Shown: positions 49,238 to 64,000 of the stretch, piece by piece
How the letters are laid out: every line of letters begins with the position of its first letter
How positions within the stretch are numbered: the stretch's first letter is position 1
Virus record (IMG/VR): IMGVR_UViG_3300042521_002634
Span: 1 to 64,000 of that record
DNA length: 64,000 nt
Source of the DNA: a virus
Reading direction: 5' to 3' (one strand)
Position numbers and translations under genes: made by a program
The notes under the pieces: model-generated
The model's input: only the letters and a program-made list of their open reading frames with translations
The model's database searches: none
Told to the model about the DNA's origin: nothing

Positions 49238-49249
49238 GGAGCTATTGTA

Positions 49250-49477
49250 CTACGAAGCAGCAGCCTTGTAGCCGCAAGGGCAGTGTTTTGAAAGCATTGG
49301 CATCATCCTTGCGCCACACCTCGGGCAGGGCTCTTCAACTGCCCTGCGCGAGTGATCACGGTCGTCGTAGTGTTTGTACGAAGTTACGTCCGCATGCTTT
49401 TTGACAACATGAATCATCGCATCGTTCGCGCTGTCGTGTCTGGCATCGCAGAACTTGCACTTATGTTTGCCTGCCAC
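49250..49477 (-). CDS. small zinc-finger protein (C2H2 + ribbon)
   Basis: CKFC...H....H and CPRC...CPC; GTG start overlaps the upstream stop. Confidence 0.55.
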   Translation of the reverse strand: MAGKHKCKFCDARHDSANDAMIHVVKKHADVTSYKHYDDRDHSRRAVEEPCPRCGARMMPMLSKHCPCGYKAAAS

Positions 49478-50004: not shown

Positions 50005-50005
50005 G

Positions 50006-50347
50006 TTAGCGTCTCGAGTTTACGTCAAGGTCTTCTGTTCTAAGCATTACTGACCACACGCTGGACAGCGCGTTGCAGAATCTGTCATCACGCAGATGAT
50101 GCATTCTGTTTTTGTAGTTGTCGTAGTCAAGTTCTTCAACCGCATTGAGCAAGAACTTTTGCCAAGACTCGTCTTTGATGAAGACACGATACGGGTAGTC
50201 TGAACCTGCATGCGTGATGATGTCAGCTTCTGCAAAGTCTGCAATTGCCTGAATCGACTCGAGATCTCGAGCACGCACTACGAGCGCGTCTGCATCTTCG
50301 CGGTGGCGAACCGCACTTAAAAAGCCTGTCTGTGTAAATACCCACAT
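50006..50347 (-). CDS. conserved phage hypothetical protein
   Basis: MWVFTQTGFLSAV..LVVRAR..DYPYR..LDYDNYK; AGGAG SD. Confidence 0.7.
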   Translation of the reverse strand: MWVFTQTGFLSAVRHREDADALVVRARDLESIQAIADFAEADIITHAGSDYPYRVFIKDESWQKFLLNAVEELDYDNYKNRMHHLRDDRFCNALSSVWSVMLRTEDLDVNSRR

Positions 50348-50414
50348 TATTATTTCTCCTTGTCATTTTGTCTTTTTGCGTAGCGGGATTGCTACGACTT
50401 TATTCAGCGCGATG

Positions 50415-50600
50415 CTAGATGTTGGTTTCTTCCATCGCTTGAATTTCTTCAAGTGACGCAGACTCTACCGTAACCGAGCTGCCGTACTCTTCTCTCATTG
50501 AACGAGCGTATGAAACGCGACGCTCAGGAGTGACATACGCGACGATGGACTTACCATCACGCGTGATTGTCGTAACCTTGTACATTTCTGGTTCTTTCAT
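50415..50600 (-). CDS. small hypothetical protein
   Basis: AAGGAG SD; upstream promoter variant. Confidence 0.6.
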   Translation of the reverse strand: MKEPEMYKVTTITRDGKSIVAYVTPERRVSYARSMREEYGSSVTVESASLEEIQAMEETNI

Positions 50601-50634
50601 TTCTGTCTCCTTTGTTAGTTCATTATACACTGCT

Positions 50635-51201
50635 TTAGAATCCAAACTTTTTTCGACACTCAGGTCCAAGTTGCAACTCACGAGAGCGAACATCTGTGAG
50701 CTCAGCTCCACATGAACCGCAGCACGAGTAGTGCTTGCCGAAGAGTTGCGTGTACTTGTACGGATCAACCGAGAGAATTGCGACGACTTCTTTAGTCTGC
50801 TCCGCTGTAAGCTTGCCGCGGTTAAACGCGCCCGGAGCTCCATGGAGCGTGCGAATGTAGAGAGTGTTCATGTACTCTTTGATCTCAACAAAAAGCAAGT
50901 CATTTGCTACTTTGACTGACGACAGCTCGAGTTCGTCCGCAGGGATTGCGTACTTTGATTTCGGCACGCTTGCGAGAAGTGTCTGCATTCCGCCGGTCGC
51001 TTTCACGCGCTTAGGCAGCGCCAGAAACGAGCTGATGTCCGAGCTTGCGTGCGACTTTGTGTAGTGGCCAGCAGAGATCGTGTCTTCAATGTGCTCCGCA
51101 GTATCCGCGTCAACCTCTCGGGTTGCGAGCAAGTCGCGGACAAAGCTGATCTGCTTTGGAGTCGCCATGTGGCGAAGTGTGTCTACGGCAGTAATTGTCA
51201 T
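50635..51201 (-). CDS. DUF6011-like zinc-ribbon protein
   Basis: ATPKQI N-terminus; CGSCGAELTD..S....LGPEC. Confidence 0.75.
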   Translation of the reverse strand: MTITAVDTLRHMATPKQISFVRDLLATREVDADTAEHIEDTISAGHYTKSHASSDISSFLALPKRVKATGGMQTLLASVPKSKYAIPADELELSSVKVANDLLFVEIKEYMNTLYIRTLHGAPGAFNRGKLTAEQTKEVVAILSVDPYKYTQLFGKHYSCCGSCGAELTDVRSRELQLGPECRKKFGF

Positions 51202-51299
51202 AACGTCCTTCAGTCGGGCCAAGCGGGTTTGCTTGACAATTAAATTATATAAACTCTGGAAAATGCTCAACTAAACTCGAGTTGAGAAGACTGCTTGAA

Positions 51300-51325
51300 G
51301 AGCCGGGCCCCAACCGGCCCGGCTC
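51300..51325. terminator. GC-rich hairpin
   Basis: GAGCCGGGCC-ccaacc-GGCCCGGCTC. Confidence 0.65.
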
Positions 51326-51336
51326 CTCGAATTCAA

Positions 51337-51642
51337 TTAGAATTCGTAGCAGTAGTATTCGTGGCGCTCGCCGACGTAGAGCTTGAGGCCGCCTCTCATC
51401 GAGGATCCTTGCAGTACGTACTGGCCATTCGCGCGAAGCGTGAACGTCATTGTTTCGCCTTGTGGATTTGGTGTGATAATCCACTGATTGCTCATTGGCG
51501 CACCGGTTGCAACAGCGTTGTCGCGTTGGGCGACCACTGTTTTGTTGTTTTCACTGACCGCGATAACAGTCATCGCAATCGTGTCGGCGCAGAATGAGAC
51601 GGATGCTCCCATTCCAATTTCTGGTTTAATCATGGTTTTCAT
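51337..51642 (-). CDS. hypothetical early protein
   Basis: AAAGGA SD and promoter repeat; PEIGMGAS...YYCYEF. Confidence 0.7.
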   Translation of the reverse strand: MKTMIKPEIGMGASVSFCADTIAMTVIAVSENNKTVVAQRDNAVATGAPMSNQWIITPNPQGETMTFTLRANGQYVLQGSSMRGGLKLYVGERHEYYCYEF

Positions 51643-51710
51643 TTTTGTCCTTTCGTCGTTGTCAGGCTTGTTTGCTTGACAAGATAAATATATCATCTCT
51701 GGAACTCGAG

Positions 51711-51735
51711 TGGCCGGCCAGTTTGTGGCCGGCCG
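51711..51735. terminator. hairpin bracketed by two CTCGAG sites
   Basis: TGGCCGGCCA-gtttg-TGGCCGGCCG between CTCGAG at 51705 and 51743. Confidence 0.65.
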
Positions 51736-51749
51736 GCCGAACCTCGAGT

Positions 51750-52118
51750 TTAGCGGTTTGGGTAGAAGGGAATGTTAAGCAGTTTGCAGTGAGCGTCGAT
51801 GAAGTCGATGATTGGTTTGCCGAATGCCGATATGCAGTCGTCGAAGTCGTCGCAGAAGTCTGAACCGGCGTAGTCGTAGCGTACGCCGTAGTTAAGTGTT
51901 TCGTCGGCTGAAAAGCCGATATTGACGAAGTCGAAGACGTTGCCGTTGTAGTCGTGGCTGAAGTTGTTGAAAAACTCAGTGGTTTCGGTTGGGTCGTCGA
52001 TGCCGGACTTAGTTGTAAGTAAGTAGGCGAGTGACAGTTTTGCGTCGAAGCTGACAGTTTCGTTGTCGATGTCGGTAAGCGTGATTTCGTAGGTGTCAGT
52101 TTTGAGTTGCGTTTTCAT
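51750..52118 (-). CDS. acidic hypothetical early protein
   Basis: Promoter repeat and SD; strong NNC codon bias. Confidence 0.75.
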   Translation of the reverse strand: MKTQLKTDTYEITLTDIDNETVSFDAKLSLAYLLTTKSGIDDPTETTEFFNNFSHDYNGNVFDFVNIGFSADETLNYGVRYDYAGSDFCDDFDDCISAFGKPIIDFIDAHCKLLNIPFYPNR

Positions 52119-52173
52119 TTTTGTCCTTTTGTCGTTGTTGGTATATACATTATACAAACTCTGGAACTCGAGT

Positions 52174-52335
52174 CTACTGATCGTTCAACCGTACAGCAAT
52201 CAGTCCAGCCAACCCAAAGGCTATCGGCACAGGTGTGTTGGCGCCGGCAATGGCAGAAACGACTGAGACTACTCCGCAGCCTGCTGCCACTACCGACGTC
52301 CAAATAACGTCACGAAAACGTGAACGCCAGTTCAT
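52174..52335 (-). CDS. 53-aa membrane protein
   Basis: Not in the ORF track. MNWRSRFRDVIWTSVVAAGCGVVSVVSAIAG...; TAATG coupling to the HTH gene; its TAG abuts the repeat. Confidence 0.6.
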   Translation of the reverse strand: MNWRSRFRDVIWTSVVAAGCGVVSVVSAIAGANTPVPIAFGLAGLIAVRLNDQ

Positions 52336-52514
52336 TAGGCCTTGCGGCGAGTGCGACCCTTGAGACGCGACGAAGCATCGCGAACTGGAGTGCCTGCTTC
52401 ATTGATAAGTTTACGGGCCTTGCCGTAGGTTACGCCCAAAGCTTGAGCTACTTCTACAATTGGCTTTCCTTCTGCGTAAAGCTGCGCTGCAGCTTGTGGA
52501 GTTGGAGTTGACAT
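52335..52514 (-). CDS. small HTH DNA-binding protein
   Basis: LYAEGKPIVEVAQALGVTYGKARKLINEAG..R; GAGG SD at the ATG 52514. Confidence 0.75.
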   Translation of the reverse strand: MSTPTPQAAAQLYAEGKPIVEVAQALGVTYGKARKLINEAGTPVRDASSRLKGRTRRKA

Positions 52515-52771
52515 TATTCCTCGTTTCGTTGTTTGTTGTTTGTGCCGCACTGGCTCGTCAGTTGGCGTCATTGCCAACTGAGCTCGGGAGCGTGCGATAA
52601 GCTCCTCCGCCTCGACGAGTAGCATTTCGCTACTCACGATCAAACTCATTAGTTCGCTCGATAAGGCTGAAGTCATTTAGTTTCTTTCTCAGCAACGCGT
52701 TCTCTATTTCTAGCTCCGCGTTTCGTCTTTGTAAGTAACTCATTGACCATTCTTCTTCCTTTGTCATAGCG

Positions 52772-53053
52772 TCAGATCGATGGTATATCATTTTCGTCAT
52801 AAAGTACACCTTGATCCGCATCTTTTTTAGGAGCTACTACTCCAAGTAAGGTTTTTGAATCTTTTTGCGCAAAACGCTTGACAGACCACACAGTTGCGAA
52901 GTGCACCGCTGGCAGCAGCAGCCCAAGGCTCGTGATGAAGACGATGCCGGCTGCGAGACTTGTTTCTCCAACAAACGGAATAACAATCAGTGGAATAGCA
53001 ATTGCTAAACTTAAAAAGATAGCCGCAAACGTTCCTGGTTGATTTTTTGTCAC
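52772..53053 (-). CDS. two-TM membrane protein
   Basis: Two hydrophobic helices; GAGG SD before the GTG. Confidence 0.6.
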   Translation of the reverse strand: MTKNQPGTFAAIFLSLAIAIPLIVIPFVGETSLAAGIVFITSLGLLLPAVHFATVWSVKRFAQKDSKTLLGVVAPKKDADQGVLYDENDIPSI

Positions 53054-53185
53054 TTGTTCCTCACTTTCAATTTTAATATACCACAATTGCAACCGCTCAG
53101 ATCATTTACACGACCTCAGCCAGCCACTTTTCAATTCCAGCCGGCGAAGTGACTCACAAACGCAGTGCGTGCCTGTGCAGACAGT

Positions 53186-53443
53186 CTAGCCCTGGGTTGG
53201 CAGCTGAATTTCTTGCCCAGGGTAGATTGTAGACGTGCCAAGGTTTAGAACTAAGTCGTCCATGGCATTTACAACGTTGCCTGAGCAATTTGCCTGAGCG
53301 ATGCCGTGTAGCGTCTGGCCTTCCTGCACTGTCACGGCCGGCGAGTTGCAAGTGTACTTGCCACTCTCTTGCGCGACCTTGACTAAGCCTACAGCCGCAA
53401 CTGCTGCCAGGGCAACAAAAAACATTTTACGTGCTTTCGTCAT
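53186..53443 (-). CDS. membrane-anchored LysM protein
   Basis: N-terminal TM; VTVQEGQTLHGIA...IYPGQEIQLP. Confidence 0.8.
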   Translation of the reverse strand: MTKARKMFFVALAAVAAVGLVKVAQESGKYTCNSPAVTVQEGQTLHGIAQANCSGNVVNAMDDLVLNLGTSTIYPGQEIQLPTQG

Positions 53444-53552
53444 TTAAGTCTCCTTCGTCATTGTAGTTGATAGTACTATTTTAACTTCTTTGGAACTGAG
53501 TTCCCTAAAGCTTAGCAGCCCGGGCGACGATTCCCGGGCGCCAGCGATCTAA

Positions 53553-53777
53553 CTAATAAGCGTACGAGTTTGAGTGACCCCAGACACGTTGATGTACCGC
53601 CGCGATGTCCGCAGCCTGCTCGTTGCTTTCGCATTCCATCTTTAAAATGACGGAATCGCTCGAGTCACCAGTCGGGCTTGCGAACCAAAGTTCAAGGGTT
53701 TTGCCGTAGAGCATGTAACCTCTGAACGCGCCTTTGCTCTCTCGAACAGTCGAGAGTGCTTCGTCTGTCATTGCCAT
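53553..53777 (-). CDS. hypothetical early protein
   Basis: SD and promoter repeat. Confidence 0.65.
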   Translation of the reverse strand: MAMTDEALSTVRESKGAFRGYMLYGKTLELWFASPTGDSSDSVILKMECESNEQAADIAAVHQRVWGHSNSYAY

Positions 53778-53842
53778 TTCATTTCGTCCTTTCGTAAGTG
53801 CCAACCATTTTGGCTGACAGAATTATATTAACTTCTCTGGAA

Positions 53843-54013
53843 TCAATGCCCGTAGCGTCGAAGCAGCTCGCACGCGATTGTCATCGGATACGATGACGCG
53901 ACATTGCGAACTACCTCCGCAACGATGTCGTCTTCGCCCAGATCCGGGTAATCGGCTTTCGCGTCTTGGATACCGATCTGTACCTCGACGAGAGCGTCAT
54001 TTAACGTTCTCAT
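53843..54013 (-). CDS. 56-aa acidic hypothetical protein
   Basis: Not in the ORF track. MRTLNDALVEVQIGIQDAKADYPDLGEDD...; SD present; its TGA abuts the next repeat. Confidence 0.65.
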   Translation of the reverse strand: MRTLNDALVEVQIGIQDAKADYPDLGEDDIVAEVVRNVASSYPMTIACELLRRYGH

Positions 54014-54155
54014 GCTCATCCTTTCGTCGTTGATAGATACAATGTATCATCTCCGGAACTGAAGTCGTAGGCCGGCTTAGTCAGAGTCCGCTCTAGTTCC
54101 GGAGATGATATATTTATCTCATCAGCACAACGCTGGTAACGACGAAAGGACGAAA

Positions 54156-54404
54156 ATGAAAAAATGGTGCTTGCTTAAAGGAAGCGACATCGGCCCAATG
54201 GGACGAGGTCAGAATGGCAAGAAGAAAGTCTACGAGGTAATCGCAGATGGTTCAGTGTTGCGTTGCTCGTGGGGCATGGCAGAGAAGATCAACCGCCAGT
54301 CAAGCGTGCAAGTGTATCACTCAGGCCAAGCAGCAATGTCAGCCGCGTACGAAAAAGTGTACGCAAAGCGAGACAAGGGATACGCTCTAGCTTACGAAGT
54401 TTAA
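54156..54404 (+). CDS. stand-alone WGR-like domain protein
   Basis: KKVYEV...LRCSWG...Q......A....K....K..KGY. Confidence 0.65.
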   Translation: MKKWCLLKGSDIGPMGRGQNGKKKVYEVIADGSVLRCSWGMAEKINRQSSVQVYHSGQAAMSAAYEKVYAKRDKGYALAYEV

Positions 54405-54424
54405 TCTTCGTAAATGGTAAGTCA

Positions 54425-54449
54425 GCCAGCCGGCCAAACCGGCTGGCTA
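54425..54449. terminator. hairpin preceding a promoter repeat
   Basis: AGCCAGCCGG-ccaaa-CCGGCTGGCT; a related hairpin lies at about 54748-54772. Confidence 0.65.
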
Positions 54450-54481
54450 ACTCCAGTTTCCAGAGTTGTTATATTGATTAC

Positions 54482-54733
54482 ATGACAAACATACAAACAC
54501 ACCAAATAATCAACATCCATCACGAACCTGAATACTTGACTACTGTCACGTTTAACTACTACGGCGACCCGTACGCCATATCGCACATCGGCAACCTAAA
54601 CGGCATCGACAGCTACTGCGTAAACAGCGTCAACAGCAACGAGTACTACGAATACCTCGCTGCCAACTGCGACTTCATCGTCGACTTGCTCAAAAATAAT
54701 CCGCGCATCGACGCCGCGCTTCACAGCAAATAA
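54482..54733 (+). CDS. leaderless Asn/Tyr/Ile-rich hypothetical protein
   Basis: TCCAGAG-N4-TATATT-N6-ATG; flanked by two similar hairpins. Confidence 0.7.
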   Translation: MTNIQTHQIINIHHEPEYLTTVTFNYYGDPYAISHIGNLNGIDSYCVNSVNSNEYYEYLAANCDFIVDLLKNNPRIDAALHSK

Positions 54734-54779
54734 CAAATAAATAATCGGCCAGCCGACTAAAAACCGGCTGGCTATTTAT

Positions 54780-54965
54780 TTACACCGCGCCAAAGTTGCG
54801 TTCAGTCCGCACGCGCTCGAGTTCTTGATTTAGGCTTTCAACTTTAGTCCGCAGCATTTGTATCTCTTCAGCTGCGTTTCTCATCACAGGCGCGGACGGA
54901 CCAAGTCCATTGCGTTCTGCCAGCGCAAGAAGACGCCATACAACATCGATTGAACCATCGATCAC
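54780..54965 (-). CDS. small coiled-coil hypothetical protein
   Basis: DVVWRL..AAEEIQMLR. Confidence 0.55.
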   Translation of the reverse strand: MIDGSIDVVWRLLALAERNGLGPSAPVMRNAAEEIQMLRTKVESLNQELERVRTERNFGAV

Positions 54966-55162
54966 TTAACTAGTTCCATGGCCACTCCAGTTGACGTGTG
55001 CTCTTTCGGATTGTGGCACACTGGCGGCTCAGATACTTTCACATGAAGAATGACAGTCTCGCCACACTTTGGGCATTTCCATTTATCTTTTCGTTTTGGC
55101 AAGCGCTCGTTGCGATCTGTAGCGCCACCGCTTTCCTCTTCTTCTGCGGCTGCTTCGTTCAT
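54962..55162 (-). CDS. small Zn-ribbon protein
   Basis: WKCPKCG...PVC....H; AGGAG SD. Confidence 0.6.
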   Translation of the reverse strand: MNEAAAEEEESGGATDRNERLPKRKDKWKCPKCGETVILHVKVSEPPVCHNPKEHTSTGVAMELVK

Positions 55163-55230
55163 TGGTACTCCTTTTAGACAATAGTAGTTGTTAAGTATAC
55201 CACGTTCTCCAGATAGATTCTGCGACTGAC

Positions 55231-55470
55231 TTAACGAGTTCGGCGTGCAGTGCGCCGCAGCCTACGCCGCTCATTACCAGTAAGTCCGCCCCAGACGCCG
55301 ATCTGTTCGTTGTCTAGCGCGTAGTCCAAACACTCCTGCCTGACTAAGCACCCAGCGCAGACGACCTTGGCCTGCCGCGTGACTATACGCGATTTCTCGT
55401 TATGGAACAAATCTCCTTTGCCGGCGCACGCCGCATGCTGCATCCAATGCTGCTGCTTAGCGATGCGCAT
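55231..55470 (-). CDS. whiB: WhiB-family transcription factor
   Basis: W...AAC..DLF..AKVVCAGC.VRQECL.YAL..GVWGGLT..ER. Confidence 0.95.
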   Translation of the reverse strand: MRIAKQQHWMQHAACAGKGDLFHNEKSRIVTRQAKVVCAGCLVRQECLDYALDNEQIGVWGGLTGNERRRLRRTARRTR

Positions 55471-55874
55471 TACTTCACCCCTACTGGGGTGAAGTAACGC
55501 TTGACTGATTCTTGGAAGAATGAATGCTTCCCAGTCGCAACCTCACGTACGTAAATTGGGTACTTCGACCGCGAAGCCGCGATACCCGCAAACGCATACT
55601 CTTTTCCATTGACTGAGAAAGTCTTTCCAAGAAGACCTTCCGGCAAGTCGTACATCGAACCAAAACGAATGTAATCTGTCGCTTCTACTGAAGCGAGATT
55701 GACTCCATTTGGTCCAGTCTCGACTGGCTGAGCTTCAATCTTGAGTGAGTAAAGTTGTCCGTACTTTATGGAGACTTTGCCTCGCTCGAGACCATGTTTT
55801 GCGAAGATTGCCACTGCAGCTTTTTCAAGCTCGTTAGTAATTTCCTGCGCAAGTGATCTGCTTACTGCTGTCAT
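55470..55874 (-). CDS. hypothetical early protein
   Basis: Promoter repeat and SD; LGKTF..G...SRSKYPI. Confidence 0.7.
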   Translation of the reverse strand: MTAVSRSLAQEITNELEKAAVAIFAKHGLERGKVSIKYGQLYSLKIEAQPVETGPNGVNLASVEATDYIRFGSMYDLPEGLLGKTFSVNGKEYAFAGIAASRSKYPIYVREVATGKHSFFQESVKRYFTPVGVK

Positions 55875-56043
55875 TTGTTTGTCCTTTCGTAGTTGACAAG
55901 TTAATTATAACAAACTCTGGAAACTTAAACAAGTGATTACTTTATGTAAAACCACCACAGATCTTCTTCTTTTTCTTCTTCTAGCCTCGCTCGAGGCGCC
56001 GGCTGCCACAGCCACAGCATTGCGCGTTTGACAGCCGCGAGCA

Positions 56044-57288
56044 CTATCCAACTGCAATCGAGCTGTACGGCGCTCCACCTACAAGTACGATTACATTATA
56101 CCCACTTAGGTTTCTAGTCGTCGTGAACTTTACCGCACCGCTGGCTGAAGAAGTCTTCGTCCAAGTAAAGGATGACTTAGCTTTTGCTAGTGCGCTAATT
56201 TGCATCTTTGTTCCGGGGAGCGAAGATTCAACTGCGATCTCGTAGCCTTCTGAAGTTTTCGTCACCGCAACTGTTACAGAAGTAGACGACGGCACTTCAG
56301 TCCCATTGTCGATCTCTTTGACAATTGTTGTTGAAGTTGTTGTTGTCACCGCAGGCGCAGAACTAGACCCAGACAATGGAGCGTACAGCAACTTGTTTGG
56401 AGAACCCACGCCAGCGTCAGTAATCGCATCGCTGGTGGCAGAACTCACAATCAACGAAGTAACGTCAGTTACAGACAGCGCTGGACTATTCTGTAGCGCT
56501 AACGCCGCGACGCCGGTGACGTGTGGCGCCGCGTGTGACGTACCTTTAAGAGTTTTAGACGCTGTTGGCGACGTAGCCCACGCTGACAGCACGTTTGCGC
56601 CTGGAGCAAATATGTCAACACACTTGCCGTAGTTAGCCCATGACCACCTAGCGTCGTTTTCATCACTCGCCGCAACGTTGATCGCGCTTGGAGTAGACCC
56701 CGGCGAGTAACTGCACGCGTCCTTATTGTTGTTGCCGGCTGCAGTAACTACTACAATTCCATCTGCAATCGCGCGATCGACCGCAGCATTTACTTTTGAT
56801 GACAAGTTTCCACTCATGCTGATATTCATGACTGCAGGCTCGCCAGTCTTGTGATCTGCTACTGCCCAGTCGATGCCCGCGATCATGTCAGACGTCCAAC
56901 CATTACCACTACAGTCTGTGACCCGCACAGGGACAAGAGTCACCTTTGGCGCTACGCCGTAGGTTGACCCGCCGACTACGCCGGCGACATGAGTGCCATG
57001 TCCGTAGCAGTCCTCAGTTCCTCGCCCATCAAGAATTTTAGTGAAACCCGCACGAATTCTGCCTGTAAACTCTTCATGCGACGAGAGTATGCCACTGTCA
57101 ACTACGTAGACAGTGACGCCTTGACCATTAAGCGCCAGCGAAACGTCTTTGTTCAACGGCAGTGAGCGTTGATCAATGCGATCAATATTCCACTGAGCTG
57201 TAGCAACGGCTTCCGCATTTCCATAGATTAAGGCGATTACGACGGCAACTATCGCCGCCACAATTGCAAACTTATTTTTTACTTTCAT
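56044..57288 (-). CDS. exported subtilisin-like S8 serine protease (aqualysin/proteinase K type)
   Basis: Signal/TM segment; WNIDRIDQR, VVDSGI, HGTHVAG, AAGN, GTSHAAPHV. Confidence 0.92.
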   Translation of the reverse strand: MKVKNKFAIVAAIVAVVIALIYGNAEAVATAQWNIDRIDQRSLPLNKDVSLALNGQGVTVYVVDSGILSSHEEFTGRIRAGFTKILDGRGTEDCYGHGTHVAGVVGGSTYGVAPKVTLVPVRVTDCSGNGWTSDMIAGIDWAVADHKTGEPAVMNISMSGNLSSKVNAAVDRAIADGIVVVTAAGNNNKDACSYSPGSTPSAINVAASDENDARWSWANYGKCVDIFAPGANVLSAWATSPTASKTLKGTSHAAPHVTGVAALALQNSPALSVTDVTSLIVSSATSDAITDAGVGSPNKLLYAPLSGSSSAPAVTTTTSTTIVKEIDNGTEVPSSTSVTVAVTKTSEGYEIAVESSLPGTKMQISALAKAKSSFTWTKTSSASGAVKFTTTRNLSGYNVIVLVGGAPYSSIAVG

Positions 57289-57494
57289 CGTGAGCTCCTG
57301 TATGATTCGTCAGTTGCACGCATGATACTTTCCCATGATGCTTTTCTGTCGTCAGCCTCTGAGCTTCTGACTATTACGCGATCGCCGTACTTAGCACGAC
57401 GATTTAGTTCACCGCGTTCTTTCCACAGAGACCAGCCAGCTACCGCGAAGAAGCTCGCAATGATAGCTTGAAACATAGCTTGAACAACTCTCAT
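57285..57494 (-). CDS. small membrane protein
   Basis: One hydrophobic helix; start position uncertain. Confidence 0.45.
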   Translation of the reverse strand: MRVVQAMFQAIIASFFAVAGWSLWKERGELNRRAKYGDRVIVRSSEADDRKASWESIMRATDESYRSSR

Positions 57495-57664
57495 TATCGA
57501 CCACGCTTGCGCGATATCGACATACCGGCGATTAAGAACACCGCGACTGCCCAAGCAACCGCAGCGGCAGTATTGTAGAACTCTATATCTATTCTCATCA
57601 TTTTCTCCTTTGTAGTTTGTATTGTGTCTTACTTTTCTTATTTTATATATTACATTCTCTGGAA

Positions 57665-58255
57665 CTAAACCGGCCCGCTCTGAACTTGTATGTTGAACGG
57701 CGCGCTCGTGTTTGCGTCCAACCTTGCCGCAACAGTAAGCGCAGTCTTGACCGCAGCCTTAGCTTTATCTATGTTGTCCGCACCTTCTGGAAGAAGAGCG
57801 TACAGCACACCGAGCGCGTATGGACTTCCAGTGCCAAGGCCGTAGATGCCACTTGTGTCTTTAACCCACGAGTAGTCTTCTCCGATGACGTACACCGCAC
57901 CATTGACTGCAGCCAGTATTATTGATCCAGACTCATCTGAATGATCTTTGTTGGGTGAAGGCGCTGTGTAACCTTGCTCGTTAAAGCACGCACGCAGTGA
58001 CGGAACAAAGTCGCTCGTTATGAATTTGTCAAGTCGGGTGCCGACAAAATTCTTAGCGTCAGGCGGACGGAATGCGTATTGCAAGATGTTGATCGCGCGC
58101 ACGTCGCCTGCAGCGCCAAGCAGATACGCACGATTCCGCGCGACCTTGGCTGAACCTTTAGGTAGAACGTAGACGCGCCCATCTTCTTCAGTGACACGCG
58201 AATCAGACCCAACTACAGTCCAGCCACTGCCAGTTACTGCAACTATCGTTGTCAT
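57665..58255 (-). CDS. proteasome beta-subunit / HslV-like threonine protease
   Basis: N-terminal (M)TTIVAV nucleophile, GSDSRVT, K, GAAGD, GTGSPYALG. Confidence 0.85.
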   Translation of the reverse strand: MTTIVAVTGSGWTVVGSDSRVTEEDGRVYVLPKGSAKVARNRAYLLGAAGDVRAINILQYAFRPPDAKNFVGTRLDKFITSDFVPSLRACFNEQGYTAPSPNKDHSDESGSIILAAVNGAVYVIGEDYSWVKDTSGIYGLGTGSPYALGVLYALLPEGADNIDKAKAAVKTALTVAARLDANTSAPFNIQVQSGPV

Positions 58256-58263
58256 GCAGTCAA

Positions 58264-58566
58264 CTATACCTTTTTGTCGAGTACGACAGGTGACATCGCA
58301 TAACGGAACTCTTTTCCATCAAGCTTGCCTTCGACTATCAATGATCTAGGCCACTTAGCCGCAACAACGCACTCGGCGCCGCGCAGGGCTTCGTACCCGC
58401 ATAGGTCATTTACAACAACTAGGTCTCCAGTCTCGTAGTCGGCGACTGAGCGCTTAGCGCGGATCTTCTGCGCATGGCGCGTCACCGCAGTCTCTATCGA
58501 GAACGCGACGTCGTCGTAGACTCCACTTTGCAGATCTGACAAAAACCTCTCAGCTTTTACCTTCAT
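58264..58566 (-). CDS. hypothetical protein (SH3-like C-terminus)
   Basis: ORF overlapping the upstream gene. Confidence 0.55.
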   Translation of the reverse strand: MKVKAERFLSDLQSGVYDDVAFSIETAVTRHAQKIRAKRSVADYETGDLVVVNDLCGYEALRGAECVVAAKWPRSLIVEGKLDGKEFRYAMSPVVLDKKV

Positions 58567-58759
58567 TGCTTAACTCCTCTACCGCACGCTTAATTTTCAG
58601 AATATCGGAGTTCTTCGACGTTGTCGGGTCAGTGACAAAGCGATTAACTTTCCTCGCTGTAGTGCCAGCCGACTCTGCAATTTTCTCAATGCCAATTTTC
58701 TTTACGGCATGCGCCAACTCGAGCATTTTCTCGATGTGACTTTCTAGTATGACTCCCAT
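58550..58759 (-). CDS. small HTH-like protein
   Basis: GIEKIAESAGTTARKVNRFV; SD and promoter repeat. Confidence 0.55.
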   Translation of the reverse strand: MGVILESHIEKMLELAHAVKKIGIEKIAESAGTTARKVNRFVTDPTTSKNSDILKIKRAVEELSNEGKS

Positions 58760-58888
58760 GTCTTCTCCTTTGTCGTTTCTTATACCTGATTGTAGATACC
58801 ATTATACATTCTCTGGATAGCAAGAAGTAGAGCCGATCAAAGTCTCAGCGATTGATTATCGGCGCTACTCTACTCGCTATGGCAGCGA

Positions 58889-59161
58889 CTATACAGCTAG
58901 AGTGACCTCACCCTTAGCGACCTGTGACATCAGCCGGCACGCTTGTTTCGTGTCGTCTACTTTGACTGACGTGCCTGTCATGATGTCGAATACGAGATAG
59001 TGAGTACGATCATCCGCTCGCAACACCGCAAGCTTCTTTCGGCGACGAAAGTACGCTGCTGAGTACCCAGCCGGCAAACTTATGCCCGCTGCAAGTTCTG
59101 GGAGCTCTTCAGTCCGCGAACCTGGCTTAGCTCTATTTTTTGTTTCTGTTTCTGTTGTCAT
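58889..59161 (-). CDS. hypothetical protein
   Basis: AAGGAG SD. Confidence 0.65.
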   Translation of the reverse strand: MTTETETKNRAKPGSRTEELPELAAGISLPAGYSAAYFRRRKKLAVLRADDRTHYLVFDIMTGTSVKVDDTKQACRLMSQVAKGEVTLAV

Positions 59162-59191
59162 TATGTCTCCTTTTGTTTTTGTTGTTATTAC

Positions 59192-59668
59192 TTAATAAAT
59201 GCTGAATCCGCCGGACTCAACTAAGAAGTCTGCGAACTCGCGAATATCGTCTACGTCAAGACTGTAGTGCGCTTCCCAAGGGCGAACCTTGCCTTTGCTA
59301 TCGCATGCATTGCACGTCTTCTTTTTGTCCATGCCCATGCTGACGCCGACCGTATCCGTTCGGATACCTGTTGCGTCACAGTACTTGCATGGCTCGTCCG
59401 GCAACGCAGCAATAGCCGCATCACGTTCTGAGACGTAGCGAGCAGCGATACCATCTGCAATGTCGTTGTAGAGCTTCAGACCGAGCGCGTAAGCGTCATC
59501 TTCGTTCAGCCCATCACCATCGTTAGTCTGAGCATTCTTCACCTTTGATGCGGTGTCTACGTGCATATCTTCTACGTAGATCCACAGCGGGCGCCAGCCC
59601 CAAACGTTGCGTCGGAAGTATTCGCCCATTTCACTTTTGGCGTTTCTTCCCATTACGTCCATTCCCAT
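59192..59668 (-). CDS. conserved phage protein with a DnaJ-like CxxCxxxG zinc finger
   Basis: YFRRNVWGWRPLW, CKYCDATG, CNACDSKG, FL.ESGGF.I. Confidence 0.7.
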   Translation of the reverse strand: MGMDVMGRNAKSEMGEYFRRNVWGWRPLWIYVEDMHVDTASKVKNAQTNDGDGLNEDDAYALGLKLYNDIADGIAARYVSERDAAIAALPDEPCKYCDATGIRTDTVGVSMGMDKKKTCNACDSKGKVRPWEAHYSLDVDDIREFADFLVESGGFSIY

Positions 59669-59719
59669 TATTGTTCTCCTTTTGTAGTGTGTCGTTTTAG
59701 TTTTGAAAGAAGCAGAACT

Positions 59720-59857
59720 TTAGAAGTCCCACTTCTTTACGCGGCAAGCCTGACGATTCGCAAGCTTGCGCTTGTTAGGAATCTGCTGAGCTCTGAGGAT
59801 ATTTCTATCCGCAAAGGCTTGGCGACTTTCCGCGTTCCATTTGGTTGATGTTTTCAT
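59720..59857 (-). CDS. 45-aa basic leaderless protein
   Basis: TATAAT-GAATAT-ATG; MKTSTKWNAESRQAFADRNILRAQQIPNKRKLANRQACR... Confidence 0.65.
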   Translation of the reverse strand: MKTSTKWNAESRQAFADRNILRAQQIPNKRKLANRQACRVKKWDF

Positions 59858-59888
59858 ATATTCATTATACAATCTCTGGAAACTCGAG

Positions 59889-60137
59889 TTAAAGACTGAA
59901 GATCGAAGTTTGTGAATCAAAGAACTCCATGTCGTCCTCTTGACCCAACCACTCAGCGAGAGTTTCCGAGTCGGATTCGTTGAAAACGATGTCGATATTT
60001 GGCCAGCCGGTGGATTCGGTGGCAATGTCGACGACGCGGACAAACGAGTCCGGAATAGTGTTTTTTAGGTCGATAATGGCGTCGAGAAGGTTTTCGGTGG
60101 CCAAGTCGACGTTGATGATTTTTGTGTGGTTGTTCAT
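59889..60137 (-). CDS. 82-aa acidic leaderless protein
   Basis: Same promoter repeat; its stop overlaps the next repeat. Confidence 0.7.
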   Translation of the reverse strand: MNNHTKIINVDLATENLLDAIIDLKNTIPDSFVRVVDIATESTGWPNIDIVFNESDSETLAEWLGQEDDMEFFDSQTSIFSL

Positions 60138-60169
60138 ATATTCATTATACAATCTCTGGAAACTCAAGT

Positions 60170-60472
60170 TTAGTAGGGACTTTGGCCGTTGTCGAAGCGG
60201 CTGTCAGTCGCGATGAGGGCCAGAAGGACATCGTAGTTGAAAACTTGTTCGATTTCAGATTCGTCGAAGAGTGGGGCCTCGAACGAGAACGTGGCGGCGT
60301 CGTTGCCGAGATTAATGAATGGCTGATTGTCGACGAAGTGAATTGTGAATATCGGGTCGAGGCCAAGTTCGTTGAAGTCGATTGTTGCGTTGTTGCAGTT
60401 AGCGTAGAAGTAGTCGATGTCGAAGTCGATTGTAACTGCGTTGTCTGTTTTTGTGATCGTGTAGGTTTTCAT
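60170..60472 (-). CDS. 100-aa acidic protein
   Basis: Promoter repeat and AAAGGA SD. Confidence 0.7.
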   Translation of the reverse strand: MKTYTITKTDNAVTIDFDIDYFYANCNNATIDFNELGLDPIFTIHFVDNQPFINLGNDAATFSFEAPLFDESEIEQVFNYDVLLALIATDSRFDNGQSPY

Positions 60473-60532
60473 GATTTTTCCTTTGTCGTTGTGTATATAA
60501 ACATTATACAAACTCTGGAAACTCGAGTTGCT

Positions 60533-60739
60533 CTATCCGAACATCTCGGCCCAGCACTCTGGGTGCGTGCCTGAAACAAGCTGCTCACGAAGACCTCTGC
60601 TTAGATCAGGGAACGCGTTCTGTATCAACGCGCCCGCACTGCGTCGTGCAAGGCCTGAGTTCGGTACTTCTACCTCACCCTTGTATCCGCAATGAACGCA
60701 CCGCGGCGTCTCGACTACTGAGTAAAACTCTGTCCGCAT
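60533..60739 (-). CDS. small Zn-binding protein
   Basis: CVHCG...IQNAFPDLS...REQLVSGTHPECW. Confidence 0.7.
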   Translation of the reverse strand: MRTEFYSVVETPRCVHCGYKGEVEVPNSGLARRSAGALIQNAFPDLSRGLREQLVSGTHPECWAEMFG

Positions 60740-60749
60740 GCTCTGCTCC

Positions 60750-60917
60750 TTAATCCCACAGAGGTTCGCGCGGTGTGAGTGCCGCAATGATGAGACATAC
60801 GCCCGAGATGCCGAGCTTGAACTGTGTCGACGTTCTCACGCCGAGGTGCTCTACACCAAGCAACCGCTCGAGTTCATTGATTGCGAGTTCGAATTCATTC
60901 TCTGTGTTTACTGCCAT
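60750..60917 (-). CDS. small hypothetical protein
   Basis: AGGAG SD. Confidence 0.5.
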   Translation of the reverse strand: MAVNTENEFELAINELERLLGVEHLGVRTSTQFKLGISGVCLIIAALTPREPLWD

Positions 60918-60964
60918 GTTGTTCTCCTGTGTCATGTTGATAGTTTAATTATATAAACTCTGGA

Positions 60965-61258
60965 CTAGTACTCTGACATCATTCTGTCGTAGCGAATCTC
61001 TTCCGCAACCGCGTCGTCGTCGTACTTCTCGAGAGCGACCATCGCCTCATCGACGTTGGTGAACTCTTGTTCGTGAATGCAATCTACGTCTGCCGGCTCC
61101 CAGTACGTCGCTGGAATTGTCTTCCAAACTGTCCCGACGATGAGTCCGCTAGTCTGCACTTGCACTTCAAGCCCGAACAAGTCGCCTATCGCGAAGTACT
61201 CCGCAATGACGCCTTCAAACGGCTCTCTTGTTCCCCATTGTTTCTTCGTGTATTTCAT
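60965..61258 (-). CDS. acidic hypothetical protein
   Basis: Promoter repeat and SD; PATYWEPA. Confidence 0.7.
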   Translation of the reverse strand: MKYTKKQWGTREPFEGVIAEYFAIGDLFGLEVQVQTSGLIVGTVWKTIPATYWEPADVDCIHEQEFTNVDEAMVALEKYDDDAVAEEIRYDRMMSEY

Positions 61259-61310
61259 ATTGCGTCCTTTCGTTGTTATATATGCATTATATAAACTCTG
61301 GAACTCGAGT

Positions 61311-61457
61311 TTACTTCTTATTTTGCTTTTCGATGCACCTGACTAAGTCTTCAGCTATTTCTTTCTTTCTGAAGTACCTAACTCCAGACGGAGTTATTAC
61401 GTTCCAAGTGTGAATGCTTCTCTCAATACGTACCTGTTGTTTCGTCGTTGTAGTCAT
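61311..61457 (-). CDS. 48-aa leaderless protein
   Basis: Not in the ORF track. TATAAT-GGTTGC-ATG; MTTTTKQQVRIERSIHTWNVITPSGVRYFRKKE...; its stop abuts a repeat. Confidence 0.6.
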   Translation of the reverse strand: MTTTTKQQVRIERSIHTWNVITPSGVRYFRKKEIAEDLVRCIEKQNKK

Positions 61458-61488
61458 GCAACCATTATATAAACTCTGGAACTCGAGT

Positions 61489-61659
61489 CTATATCGAGAT
61501 CGGGCAACTCAGGTTCGCATCGTTTGAGTGGAATCGAAGTTCCTGCTTGCAAACTGCGCAGATTTCGTCTAAGTCTAGACCAACAACGCTGTCGTTGTAG
61601 TCACGCATAGCTCGTCGTTTACCTGCTCGATAAGCGATGTACAGTCCTAAGATTCCCAT
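61489..61659 (-). CDS. 56-aa leaderless protein with a CxxC..H..C motif
   Basis: TATAAT-GTAGTT-ATG. Confidence 0.6.
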   Translation of the reverse strand: MGILGLYIAYRAGKRRAMRDYNDSVVGLDLDEICAVCKQELRFHSNDANLSCPISI

Positions 61660-61691
61660 AACTACATTATAACAGCTCTGGATGTCCAAAG

Positions 61692-61780
61692 TGGCAGCGG
61701 TCTTGCCTTGCAGCCTCCCGCCAGGCCGATGCTTGAAATTGGCAGCGGTCTTGCCTCTGCAGCCTTCCACCAGGCCGATG
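61692..61780. repeat. intergenic tandem duplication of a ~40-bp GC-rich unit (48-bp period)
   Basis: tggcagcggtcttgcct-tgcagcctcccgccaggccgatg versus tggcagcggtcttgcctctgcagccttccaccaggccgatg. Confidence 0.9.
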
Positions 61781-61782
61781 TC

Positions 61783-61986
61783 TCAATCGCGTTTAGGGAA
61801 CGCAATGATCTTAGCATCAGGCGGTTCAGGCAGCACCTCGATGTCGAGGATGTCAACCATCTCTGCGTCTTCTATTCCCTGCGAGACAGCTGCGAATACC
61901 TCACCGTCTATCTCTGTGTATGCGTCAGGCCCGCGCCTCACGCACAGCCGGACCACTACTGAGTAGAGGACCGTGCCTTCACTCAT
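61783..61986 (-). CDS. small acidic hypothetical protein
   Basis: ATGA coupling to the upstream gene. Confidence 0.55.
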   Translation of the reverse strand: MSEGTVLYSVVVRLCVRRGPDAYTEIDGEVFAAVSQGIEDAEMVDILDIEVLPEPPDAKIIAFPKRD

Positions 61987-62201
61987 GATTGTGCGGCGTC
62001 AGGGAACACCAACGGCAGCGCTAACTGCGCCGTCGGTTTCATCTTGCCGCCTGACAACTGCAGCGCGATACTTCCACGCTCGCCTTCAGGCGCGTTGTCG
62101 ACGTCTTCCCACTCGTCCTCGGTCCAGTCTGATGTGTCGACGACGACTAATTGACGAGCATTGCCGTAGTTTCCATCGGCAGCGAAATAGTGAATTGTCA
62201 T
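61983..62201 (-). CDS. small acidic hypothetical protein
   Basis: YFAADGNYG..DTSDWTEDEW; promoter repeat and SD. Confidence 0.65.
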   Translation of the reverse strand: MTIHYFAADGNYGNARQLVVVDTSDWTEDEWEDVDNAPEGERGSIALQLSGGKMKPTAQLALPLVFPDAAQS

Positions 62202-62314
62202 TAGGTTATCCTTTCGTTGTTGTTACGTACATTATATAAACTCTGGAAGAATGAACCAACCCGGGAGGAACACTAAAGGACAAGTAAAGTGTGTCCACCC
62301 CGGGCCGGCGATCT

Positions 62315-64000
62315 TTAGCGTTGAACTGACTCCAGCGCTCTTGCTGCTGCAGATCCTATCTGCGTCGCTACGTCTGCGGCACTTGTAATCTTCTCGACGA
62401 GCTGCACTGACTTGGTGCTCGAGCTATTGAGAAGTCGACGAGCGTCGTCACTCGCTAACGGAGACACAACCATGACTCCGACACCAAGTCTTTCGCACTC
62501 ATCTAACCAGCGTCGTGCGTTCTTCGTCTCTTCGTGAGTGTAACACAGATCGCTAACGATGACGAGCAATCGCGCGCCTACGCCATTGAGCAAGTTCAAC
62601 GAACCATCAAGCGCTTTGAATGCTTTCTCAAAGCGTTCAGTTCCATCTGGCGCCGAGTACACTGTCACCTCTGACAAGTGCTGCCCGGGCTTCAATGTTG
62701 GGAACACCCCAGTGCCGTAGTAAACCATCGCCGCACGGCCTTGAACTCTCCGCACCGCTTCGCTCATGACCCACGCTGTCACTGCCATCGGCTCCATCGC
62801 CGAGGACATTGAACCGCTGATGTCGACCATTACGCCGACAGTGAGAGTTGGGTCGTCAGTGTGCGTGCGCTTAGTCCGGCGCCATGGCTCTACTTGCGTC
62901 ATGATGCCCTTCGACTTAAACGCTGCTCCCTGCACCATAGCGCGCGTGCGCAACCGGCCAGGAGGAACGATCGACTTAATCTCAGTCTCGTCACGCTCAC
63001 GATACTTAGCTTTCTCAAGCATCTGCGCTACCTTGACTGCTGCTGCTCGTTCATCACCACGTGGAGCGCGCTTTTCAACTAGACGACTGTTTGTCTCAGA
63101 AGAAGATTCTGGCCCAGTGCCTCTACCGAATACTTTGTCCGCAGCGTCCTTGTGTTCTTTCTGCTGCTTCGCTGCACCGCTTCGACTTTTAACTTCACGC
63201 TCCCATTCTTCTTGCGTCTGTTGATCTGCTGCATCGGCTGAACCACCGACAGCTGCGTTGCCAGCTGCTTCCTCGAGTGCTTCCTCGAGTGCTTCCCCGA
63301 ACTCGCCAAGCTCGCCTAGCCCTGATTCACCTTGACCAGGCTCTGGCTCACCAGCTTCAGCTGCTGCCTCTTTAACTAATCTTGCCCACTCACGGGCGAC
63401 AGGGTAGAGACCTTCAATTGAACTGTGTGAAGTGTAGTCCTGAGCTTGCAGCCATAGGTTGCGAAGCTTAGTGAAGAGCTCTACACCAAGCTTATTGATT
63501 AGAACTTCCTCTACAGTCTCGATGTCTGACAGCTCGAGTGAACCCGCATCTACGCGTGCTGACGTGAGTGCCGCCATGTGCGCTGCTGTCCACATGCTGC
63601 TGGTGTCTACACCGGTGACATTGAGGTCAGCCATCACTATCTCGAGCGCGCAAGCGCGGAGAAACCCGGAGTTACCTGGCATCAAGGTGACGCCTAAGTT
63701 CTCGATACGACCTTCTTCAAGAAGCACGAGTGCTTTGAACTCAAGAGACTCGAGGTCCTTCTGCGCTTTAATGAGATCCCAGCGAGAGAACCGAGCGTGG
63801 AGAGCTTCATGGAATATGACACCAGAAGCTTTAGGCCAGTCGAACTGAACGCTGCGTTGCGTCATGTCGCCGATCGACGCCGGCGTTATTGACTTGCCAA
63901 ACGCTCTCGTCACATCTACTTCGATCTCTGCAAGCATTGGGTTGTAGCACGCTGGTGCCACGCCGCCACCGGCGCCTGGGCCGACGTACGCGATAACATC
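62315..64000 (-). CDS. HExxH metallopeptidase-like + VWA domain protein, 5' end beyond the window
   Basis: FHEALH..S, LLEEGRIE; MIDAS DISGS, IVSD; frame open to the window end. Confidence 0.8.
   Translation of the reverse strand, partial: DVIAYVGPGAGGGVAPACYNPMLAEIEVDVTRAFGKSITPASIGDMTQRSVQFDWPKASGVIFHEALHARFSRWDLIKAQKDLESLEFKALVLLEEGRIENLGVTLMPGNSGFLRACALEIVMADLNVTGVDTSSMWTAAHMAALTSARVDAGSLELSDIETVEEVLINKLGVELFTKLRNLWLQAQDYTSHSSIEGLYPVAREWARLVKEAAAEAGEPEPGQGESGLGELGEFGEALEEALEEAAGNAAVGGSADAADQQTQEEWEREVKSRSGAAKQQKEHKDAADKVFGRGTGPESSSETNSRLVEKRAPRGDERAAAVKVAQMLEKAKYRERDETEIKSIVPPGRLRTRAMVQGAAFKSKGIMTQVEPWRRTKRTHTDDPTLTVGVMVDISGSMSSAMEPMAVTAWVMSEAVRRVQGRAAMVYYGTGVFPTLKPGQHLSEVTVYSAPDGTERFEKAFKALDGSLNLLNGVGARLLVIVSDLCYTHEETKNARRWLDECERLGVGVMVVSPLASDDARRLLNSSSTKSVQLVEKITSAADVATQIGSAAARALESVQR

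Follow-up and report, generated by a model that had tools for sequence, protein, structure and literature searches.

A lineage-specific heptamer in the spacer of a family of −35-less predicted early promoters in lake actinophages

What reads a promoter that has no −35 box and carries instead a sharply conserved seven-base word inside its spacer? This question is raised by the early region of IMG/VR virus record IMGVR_UViG_3300042521_002634, in which the heptamer TCCAGAG recurs four bases upstream of −10-like boxes that precede small genes. The window analyzed here is the first 64 kb (64,000 nucleotides) of this 98,426-base record, which comes from lake water and has an estimated completeness of 74%. 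By Pfam and PHROGs it represents a tailed phage of actinobacteria, with a terminase, a portal-like protein, a siphovirus-type tail protein (Pfam: SPP1_Dit), PolA, a primase-helicase, two WhiB proteins, and a DUF3039 protein. An earlier note on the window had described about 21 such repeats and proposed that they form a regulon read by a dedicated regulator. Our sequence comparisons reveal a real, highly non-random family of predicted promoters that a group of abundant lake actinophages has in common, with letters specific to each lineage.

The exact pattern TCCAGAG-N4-TANNNT, in which N4 denotes four bases of any kind, occurs 15 times in the window, always within 51244-62247, with 14 copies on the minus strand and one on the plus strand; 100 dinucleotide shuffles of the window gave a mean of 0.07 matches and a maximum of one. 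A motif search over the whole record bears out the array and carries it past the window, with 24 exact sites (51244-69198, 23 on the minus strand) and none for the reversed pattern used as a control. TCCAGAG by itself occurs 20 times in the window against 7.0 expected; 16 of these copies lie within 51254-62247, and the other four (133, 15330, 44829, and 45590) have no −10 box. Allowing one mismatch or a five-base gap (N5) adds the sites 53494, 54057, 54098, 55921, and 67292 and an outlier on the plus strand at 46932, and an extra N5 site at 50639 carries TCTAAAG, with two mismatches, for a total of about 31 sites between 46.9 and 69.2 kb. The site at 64079 (plus strand) is probably a chance match, yet it is included among the 31 sites aligned below, and the 30-site comparison of flanks and palindromes leaves out the N5 site 50639. 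Within 50620-62247 we count 20 sites, namely 15 exact N4 sites, three N4 sites with one mismatch (TCCAAAG at 53494 and TCCGGAG at 54057 and 54098), and two N5 sites (TCCAGAG at 55921 and TCTAAAG at 50639), so that the repeat array of the earlier note stands and its tally of 19 N4 and two N5 copies is corrected to 18 and two. Its statement that boxes elsewhere lack the heptamer agrees with our counts: 17 of 18 TATAAT words outside 50-69.5 kb are without it and 20 of 24 inside have it, and among the four inside that do not, two repeat heptamer sites in a shifted register and a third belongs to the TCTAAAG-N5 site. The exact TCCAGAG version is found in no other IMG/VR record beyond chance; the exact 17-mer TCCAGAGTTTATATAAT occurs at 11 loci with one match each, and the five records checked whole hold one or two, as chance would give.

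When the 31 sites are aligned on the −10 box, the conserved letters upstream of it are T−24 (25 sites), T−23 (30), C−22 (31), C−21 (29), A−20 (27), G−19 (28), A−18 (30), and G−17 (30), which places the heptamer at −23 to −17, inside the spacer and four bases 5' of the box, as had been described. Over the whole set the gap is N4 at 29 of 31 sites and N5 at two (55921 and 50639); within it, T−15 is found at 26 and G−14 at 11 of the 31 aligned sites. The box has T−10 at 24, A−9 at 27, and A−8 at 26 sites, A−11 and T−7 being fixed by the search pattern, and it is exactly TATAAT at 21 of 31. G−6 follows in 17 sites, a pyrimidine stands at −1 in 29 and a purine at +1 in 28, the predicted +1 purine being six bases after the box. 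A −35 signal is missing, as the earlier note had held: no position of the alignment from −36 to −30 carries more than 0.27 bit of information and −29 carries 0.35, nothing stands out upstream of −24, and the pattern TTGAC[AT]-N16-18-TANN[AT]T has three matches in the record and none at heptamer sites. Nor are the sites as a group of the extended −10 type, with TG at −15/−14 in seven and TT in 16 of 27 sites (TG in nine of 31 as read from the site sequences).

At seven sites (46932, 54459, 59880, 60160, 61480, 61682, and 69198) an ATG comes exactly 6-7 nucleotides (nt) after the box and begins an open reading frame (ORF) of 45-135 amino acids (aa), and four relatives also have a leaderless orthologue of the first array gene. 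Because these leaderless ATGs fall at the predicted +1, they support a sigma-A-type start point and are the best evidence for it here. The remaining sites are followed by a ribosome-binding site and by an ATG 27-53 nt after the box, for the most part with a conserved leader that includes CAACGACGAAAGGAC; at the N5 site 50639 the ATG comes 23 nt after it. All sites are co-oriented with the next ORF. That the repeats are promoters is, on these grounds, highly probable.

The 20-base flanks on both sides of 30 sites agree on average at 13.7 of 40 positions, and neighboring sites are no more alike than distant ones. Since the flanks have diverged, copying cannot explain the constant heptamer; and since the length of N4 is also kept, at 28 of the 30 sites compared, while its letters vary, the heptamer and its distance to the box appear to be under selection. 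We conclude from this pattern that the heptamer itself is a selected element, and the fixed gap with varying letters fits an element that works jointly with polymerase at the box better than a mere operator.

We collected 80 related loci with the AAA ATPase gene of the array, and these can be grouped by promoter class. The heptamer class includes at least 12 distinct lake phages and the metagenome-assembled Actinomycetia phage DSL-LC01, which is the closest named relative (76% identity in the AAA ATPase); each has its own heptamer letters with the N4 gap unchanged, all sites are on the strand of the genes, and the family consensus is WCYNRRG. TCTAAAG is found at 18 of 24 sites in DSL-LC01, 29 of 32 in locus L049, and 25 of 27 in L060, ACTAAAG at 15 of 15 in L043, and TCTAAAA at 16 of 16 in L047; L029 has TCTAGGG and TCTAAGG, and L039 and L035 have mixed variants (such as TCTAAGG, TCTCAGG, and ACTCGGG). 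TG at −15/−14 is present at 18 of 24 sites in DSL-LC01, 20 of 23 in L037, and 14 of 19 in L034. A second, extended-−10 class of 19 loci has ACCTGA-TATAAT in place of the heptamer, and among more distant relatives the repeats are CTTGACAAA, which is a regular −35 box, or different words, GGTAAAAA among them. At the orthologous genes for the AAA ATPase and for the 597-aa, 148-aa, and 110-aa proteins, the box, start point, and leader are kept and only the upstream element differs. The repeated words before the early genes of related loci L029-L108 comprise the heptamer with its box, ACCTGATATAAT, the −35 box word already given, GGTAAAAAA, TGCTACTAAG, ACGGCGAG, and others, so varied a set of natural promoter or regulatory solutions being present within a single group of phages. 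Single genes of the array are reordered in relative G311, with some blocks kept together; G311 and G314 were considered as a close pair with different heptamers and set aside as too distant, at 74% identity over 28 kb.

We also searched 387 genomes of candidate host lineages for TCYARRG-N4-TANAAT, again with the reversed pattern as a control. Five candidate host genomes gave two matches against two in the control, with no enrichment, 301 genomes of the family of a Rhodoluna genome gave 27 against 28, and 81 genomes of a second candidate order gave 6 against 17 (the latter two controls tallied from the table). These numbers argue against common host use of the heptamer with the box, with the caveat that host promoters rarely combine two near-consensus elements.

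We posit that the repeats are the promoters of an early-gene array, each of a −35-less, primary-sigma (sigma-A) type, from which transcription would begin at the purine six bases downstream of the near-consensus box, in seven cases the A of the leaderless ATG. The heptamer would be a positive, position-dependent element that replaces the −35 hexamer and, in this phage, largely the TG of the extended −10 as well, and it would be read by a phage-encoded protein acting on the host RNA polymerase. The heptamer promoters may then be "delayed-early," coming on later than a first operon whose promoter is an ordinary extended −10. Four observations suggest a phage-encoded reader: each lineage has its own letters, orthologous promoters have changed in concert, the first operon has an ordinary promoter of its own, and the host genomes searched gave no signal; on similar grounds (lineage-specific variants, same spacing, no host enrichment) the dedicated regulator proposed earlier is plausible, with RNA polymerase itself, at the position of the Z-element, a live rival. 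The sequences directly show the motif and its spacing, the common orientation with the genes, the leaderless starts, the variants in relatives, and the absence of enrichment in candidate hosts; from these we infer that the sites act as promoters, that the heptamer has a positive effect, and, with the least certainty, what kind of molecule reads it. Taken whole, the statement that early-array promoters carry a heptamer read by a phage-encoded protein on host RNA polymerase is to us nearly an even call, falling a little short of one. Its sharper form, in which a phage protein reads a 7-base-pair (bp) element centered at −20 and redirects the host sigma-A polymerase, element and reader having shifted together in each lineage and a 125-aa protein being the first candidate, we consider somewhat less likely than not.

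The 125-aa protein, encoded on the minus strand at record positions 65855-66232 (L009:1855-2232), has a MGDR…HWGG…YATRI motif. All 19 heptamer loci have it and none of the 19 extended-−10 loci does, and it is the only protein that tracks the heptamer class; two extended-−10 records that were searched over their full length also lack it, namely G313 (completeness estimated at 100%) and G312 (terminal repeats, 68% estimated). A profile search of Protein Data Bank (PDB) sequences gave a best E of 0.42. A 170-aa protein at record positions 68218-68730 may be a PadR-like winged-helix protein (E 0.0049, below the Pfam cut-off) with a C-terminal coiled coil; it also occurs in phages without the heptamer, at 15 of 19 extended-−10 loci, and it evolves fast, with about 32% identity between relatives. 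WhiB proteins bind region 4 of the primary sigma factor. The suggestion that WhiB or the helix–turn–helix (HTH) protein is the reader did not gain from our comparison, their homologues being present in relatives without the heptamer. A 1309-aa protein encoded on the plus strand at 74365-78294 of the record is found in this phage and in G311, is absent from both extended-−10 records, and occurs at six of 19 heptamer loci; homologues belong to heptamer-class relatives only, a count that 20-kb loci may limit. We considered it as a polymerase and rejected it, given a signal-like start, Thr-rich linkers, and repeats, with no significant match among PDB sequences (best E 0.011); an atlas search gave no lead. 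It has Asn/Gly/Ser/Thr-rich repeats, which are possibly beta-helix-like in sequence, and an acidic repeat tail. The first array gene (record 68767-69174) encodes a Cys-rich, zinc-finger-like protein of 135 aa whose structure model is poor (pLDDT 64.5).

Several points count against a phage-encoded reader in general or against these candidates in particular. Early genes normally need to be read by the unaided host polymerase. Among 124 proteins, Pfam models at E 0.001 or better identify no sigma factor, MotA, AsiA, or RNA polymerase family, and the WhiB and HTH-like proteins are shared with relatives of the extended-−10 class. The 125-aa protein is also encoded in five relatives with the GGTAAAAA repeat and in L106, and its structure model, although confident (pLDDT 90.7), has no recognizable fold, with a best Foldseek E against the PDB of 0.11 and a best VIA Z of 4.2. 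A covariation analysis of six families, including the 125-aa protein, each with a member in every phage compared, found no column that separates the three phages with GGG/AGG-type heptamers from the seven with AAG-type ones. Several genomes (L035, L039, and L032) mix variants internally, so that one tolerant WCYNRRG reader, possibly RNA polymerase, could serve all lineages. The host-genome comparison may have sampled the wrong lineages. All 24 sequencing runs listed for 52300-62290 are of DNA from lake water, with no RNA run among them.

The strongest rival, which we consider possible and yet rather unlikely, is that the host RNA polymerase holoenzyme reads the heptamer directly, by the beta-prime zipper and/or sigma domain 3, the promoters being a strong −10/Z class and the differences between phages being drift within WCYNRRG. 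The position of the heptamer, the N4 gap, and the near-consensus boxes coincide with the position of the Z-element, which speaks for this rival and against a phage protein. The letters C−22, Y−21, R−19, R−18, and G−17 are common to all variants, lineages differ from one another by transitions, and some genomes mix variants; sister lineages use at orthologous promoters an extended −10, which polymerase reads alone; and the genes served look like early genes. The Z-elements quoted by Yuzenkova et al., however, are unlike CCAGA or CTAAA and are loose and weak, whereas the present sites keep seven near-invariant positions amid diverged flanks. A single conserved reader does not predict that C−21 (29 of 31) and G−19 (28 of 31) here should be T and A in relatives, matches in the candidate host lineages do not exceed the reversed control, and a short loop would not be expected to specify seven base pairs.

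That the heptamer is instead an operator, through which a phage-encoded repressor shuts off or times all the early promoters while these work by the −10 box, with or without TG, alone, strikes us as improbable. The full extended −10 of some relatives (DSL-LC01, L037, and L034) makes an additional positive element seem unnecessary, the many asymmetric, lineage-specific, transcription-oriented sites recall the repressor sites of Cluster A mycobacteriophages, and the possible winged-helix protein with a coiled coil at 68218-68730 could be such a repressor. The N4 gap, however, is fixed despite its varying letters, which suggests a joint geometry with polymerase rather than occlusion; about two thirds of the sites here are without TG (TT at 16 of 27), so something must replace it; and the winged-helix protein is encoded at most extended-−10 loci as well. 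We give very little credence to the proposal that a phage-encoded sigma factor or RNA polymerase beyond recognition by Pfam has the entire 17-bp unit as its promoter. Phage-specific upstream letters with a constant box recall promoters of phage polymerases and sigma factors, and most of the early proteins have no known family; yet the box, G−6, the −1/+1 pattern, and the start distance are those of a primary sigma and are common to the sister extended-−10 phages, the 124 proteins scanned include no sigma or polymerase family, and the 1309-aa protein of the heptamer class is by its sequence secreted and repeat-rich. Least credible of all is a recombination point for swaps of single-gene cassettes, its sequence kept alike by copying and with no reader, for which the reordering in G311 (some blocks together), the stop codons that abut or overlap the heptamer, and the precedent of the PeSL cassettes can be cited, since the flanks of the 30 copies are barely alike, neighbors are no closer, and a role in shuffling would add to promoter function, as it does in PeSLs.

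The array that these promoters would serve comprises about 30 promoters for about 40 small genes at 50.6-69.2 kb of the record, mostly in units of one to four genes, and most of the genes have no Pfam or PHROG name. Stop codons often abut the heptamer and once, at 50639, lie inside it. Of the 56-nt stretches upstream of the 31 sites, nine fold with z < −2, and the mean is −14.8 kcal/mol compared with −12.4 for random stretches of the same region. From the left, the copies begin with the outlier TCCAAAG-N4-TATAAT at 46932-46948 (plus strand), with a leaderless ATG 6 nt after the box (ORF 46955-47314, 119 aa). Next, on the minus strand, comes TCTAAAG-N5-TATAAT, with the heptamer of relatives, at 50622-50639 (61-aa ORF starting at 50599), where the stop codon inside the heptamer is that of the upstream gene. 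On the same strand follow TCCAGAG-N4-TATAAT at 51244-51260 before a 188-aa DUF6011 gene (50635-51201); TCCAGAG-aTGa-TATATT, with TG at −15/−14, at 51687-51703 before a 101-aa gene, with a strong GC hairpin upstream; ACTCGAGT with TCCAGAG-N4-TATAAT at 52149-52165 before a 122-aa gene; TCCAAAG-N4-TAAAAT at 53478-53494 before a three-gene unit (LysM, 85 aa; 93 aa; HTH-like, 113 aa, at 52335-52676); and TCCAGAG-N4-TAATAT at 53825-53841 before a 74-aa gene. The divergent TCCGGAG pair of the earlier note is present, its heptamers standing back-to-back at 54051-54057 (minus) and 54098-54104 (plus), 40 bp apart: the left arm, TCCGGAG-aTGa-TACATT (54041-54057, minus), precedes a 56-aa gene and the right arm, TCCGGAG-aTGa-TATATT (54098-54114, plus), the gene for an 82-aa protein (54156-54404), which has a weak WGR match (E 0.011, below the Pfam cut-off). 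Also on the plus strand, TCCAGAG-tTGt-TATATT at 54459-54475 has a leaderless ATG 6 nt after the box (ORF 54482-54733, 83 aa).

The sites in the rest of the window are all on the minus strand. TCCAGAG-N5-TATAAT at 55904-55921, with TG at −15/−14, precedes a four-gene unit that includes a WhiB gene (55231-55470); TCCAGAG-N4-TAATAT at 57647-57663 a unit ending in a subtilase gene (56044-57288); and TCCAGAG-N4-TATAAT at 58801-58817 a unit ending in an HslV-like peptidase gene (57665-58255). TCCAGAG-N4-TATAAT recurs, preceded by AACTCGAGTT, at 59864-59880 with a leaderless ATG 6 nt after the box (45-aa ORF, 59720-59857); at 60144-60160, likewise leaderless at 6 nt (82 aa, 59889-60137); at 60503-60519, after AACTCGAGTT, before a 100-aa gene; at 60948-60964 before a 55-aa gene; at 61286-61302, after ACTCGAGT, before a 97-aa gene; and at 61464-61480, after ACTCGAGT, with a leaderless ATG 6 nt after the box (48 aa). 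TCCAGAG-cTGt-TATAAT at 61666-61682 has the same leaderless spacing of 6 nt (56-aa ORF, 61489-61659), and TCCAGAG-N4-TATAAT at 62231-62247 precedes a 72-aa gene; ten further copies lie past the window, at record positions 64142-69198. A palindrome, (A)ACT(C/T)GAGT(T), which holds an XhoI-type CTCGAG, does directly adjoin the 5' side of the heptamer, as had been noted, at seven of 30 promoters (window positions 51687-61480) rather than "often"; at 51703 it is the base of a long terminator stem and at the remaining sites it stands alone. In addition, a hairpin lies 5' of the promoter of the 597-aa gene (upstream region of window positions 62315-64108), and its loop word GTAGGTG is kept across many relatives of both promoter classes.

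The first operon (record 73367 to 69199), which lies upstream of the array, has no heptamer. Its promoter, cgTGaTACAAT, is an extended −10, and three TGTACA palindromes sit between the TGaTACAAT promoter and the start codon. In heptamer-class relatives the leader of the first operon also has TGTACA repeats, several with a TG-type −10 box, and in extended-−10 relatives it has TGACnTGTCA. Upstream of this operon is a non-coding, AT-rich stretch of about 0.7 kb (record 73367-74100; L009:9367-10100) that holds TATACG-type repeats and three copies of AACTGCGGCGAAAAA-like words, and it looks like an operator-controlled immediate-early promoter, perhaps adjoining an origin. The first gene of the early region (record 72861-73367, minus strand; L009:8861-9367) encodes a 168-aa Cys-rich protein with no Pfam family, and homologues with 27-51% identity occur at 44 related loci of all promoter classes. 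Within the operon are a tRNA-Thr with anticodon TGT (record 71776-71850, minus strand; L009:7776-7850) and, adjoining it, a 63-aa Lys/Ala/Pro-rich ORF of histone-H1-like composition (L009:7168-7359).

Other comparisons place the phage only in outline. Its DUF3039 protein is nearest (66-68%) to those of Rhodoluna and other Micrococcales genomes, a weak hint that these may be the host lineage. A megablast search of 50000-62500 against GenBank phages returned a single match of 113 bases, and an Rfam scan of 46000-64000 returned no family. Microbacterium phage Pumpernickel, with an AAA ATPase 55% identical, was tried for comparison and set aside, its genes being tightly packed and its layout different. 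Literature searches on the promoters of these phages found nothing in print, and the words "promoter" and "motif" are absent from the main text of the DSL-LC01 paper, supplements aside.

The −35 box is often missing from actinobacterial promoters, and how polymerase is recruited to such promoters is only partly understood. The present family offers about 30 natural copies in this one genome, and hundreds across relatives, in which the only extra information is a sharp element at −23 to −17. If polymerase reads the heptamer, the −10/Z promoters predicted in 2011 would, as far as literature searches show, gain a large natural family, and a consensus for actinobacteria would come with it. Should the reader be a phage protein instead, abundant uncultured freshwater phages would have a new promoter-switching system, in which both the kind of specificity switch and its position, at −20 and one turn of the helix 5' of the −10 box, would be new. 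Either way the motif is of practical use, for finding early genes, for settling start codons (leaderless ones among them), and for sorting phages into promoter classes; homologous early regions that have swapped among the heptamer, the extended −10, and TTGACA amount to a natural experiment on how promoters evolve.

Among known systems, the middle promoters of phage T4 combine a MotA box centered near −30 with a sigma-70-type −10 box, dozens of them standing before delayed-early genes and the genes of the factors being on ordinary early promoters. The heptamer promoters are similar in having a phage-specific upstream box in place of the −35 and a sigma-70-type −10, and differ in the center of the element, at −20, and in the lack of a MotA or AsiA family among the 124 proteins. 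The "stoperators" of Cluster A mycobacteriophages are asymmetric 13-bp repressor sites that are scattered over the genome and not tied to a −10 box, in contrast to 7-bp words that are always 4 nt (twice 5) from the box and restricted to the early region. The PeSL cassettes of T4-like phages, as described in passages of two papers (PMC2839356, PMC4122927), place strong early promoters and stem-loops before small genes of unknown function and are points of gene shuffling. As in PeSLs, dozens of near-identical early promoters stand here in a variable region, in the order stop codon, in some cases a likely stem-loop, promoter, ribosome-binding site, and start codon, and gene order is shuffled. According to the same passages, however, the promoters of PeSLs match the sigma-70 consensus throughout, with a −35 box, and have AT-rich DNA upstream, whereas the present sites have no −35 box, no AT-rich upstream signal, a heptamer at −20, and a strong hairpin at only nine of 31 sites, in an actinophage with a siphovirus-type tail gene rather than a T4-like myovirus.

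Phage promoters that are independent of the −35 box are also described with an anti-sigma-region-4 factor, gp39 of Thermus phage P23-45, in a passage of PMC3950348. The predicted heptamer promoters would share −35 independence, and do share a strong −10 box, with these and with extended −10 promoters, sister phages use ACCTGA-TATAAT, and nine of 31 sites here have TG; most sites here are nevertheless without TG, the conserved element is further upstream and lineage-specific, and no gp39 or AsiA homologue was seen. The WhiB family, members of which are encoded here, binds the primary sigma factor according to a passage of PMC13013590. The closest parallel in position is the Z-element, which the passages at hand of Yuzenkova et al. 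(2011, EMBO J, PMC3173786) map to −22 to −18, "4 bp upstream of the −10 element," and assign to the beta-prime zipper; there it can replace the −35 box given a strong −10 box, and a −10/Z promoter class is predicted. The heptamer resembles it in standing four bases 5' of a strong −10 box at sites that have no −35 box. The Z-elements quoted in those passages are AACCT, AACAT, AATGT, and AAATT, single-base effects are less than 2-fold, and the consensus is called "loose," in contrast to a 7-bp element that reads CCAGA at −22 to −18 here and CTAAA or CTAGG in relatives, near-invariant at about 30 sites and variable between lineages.

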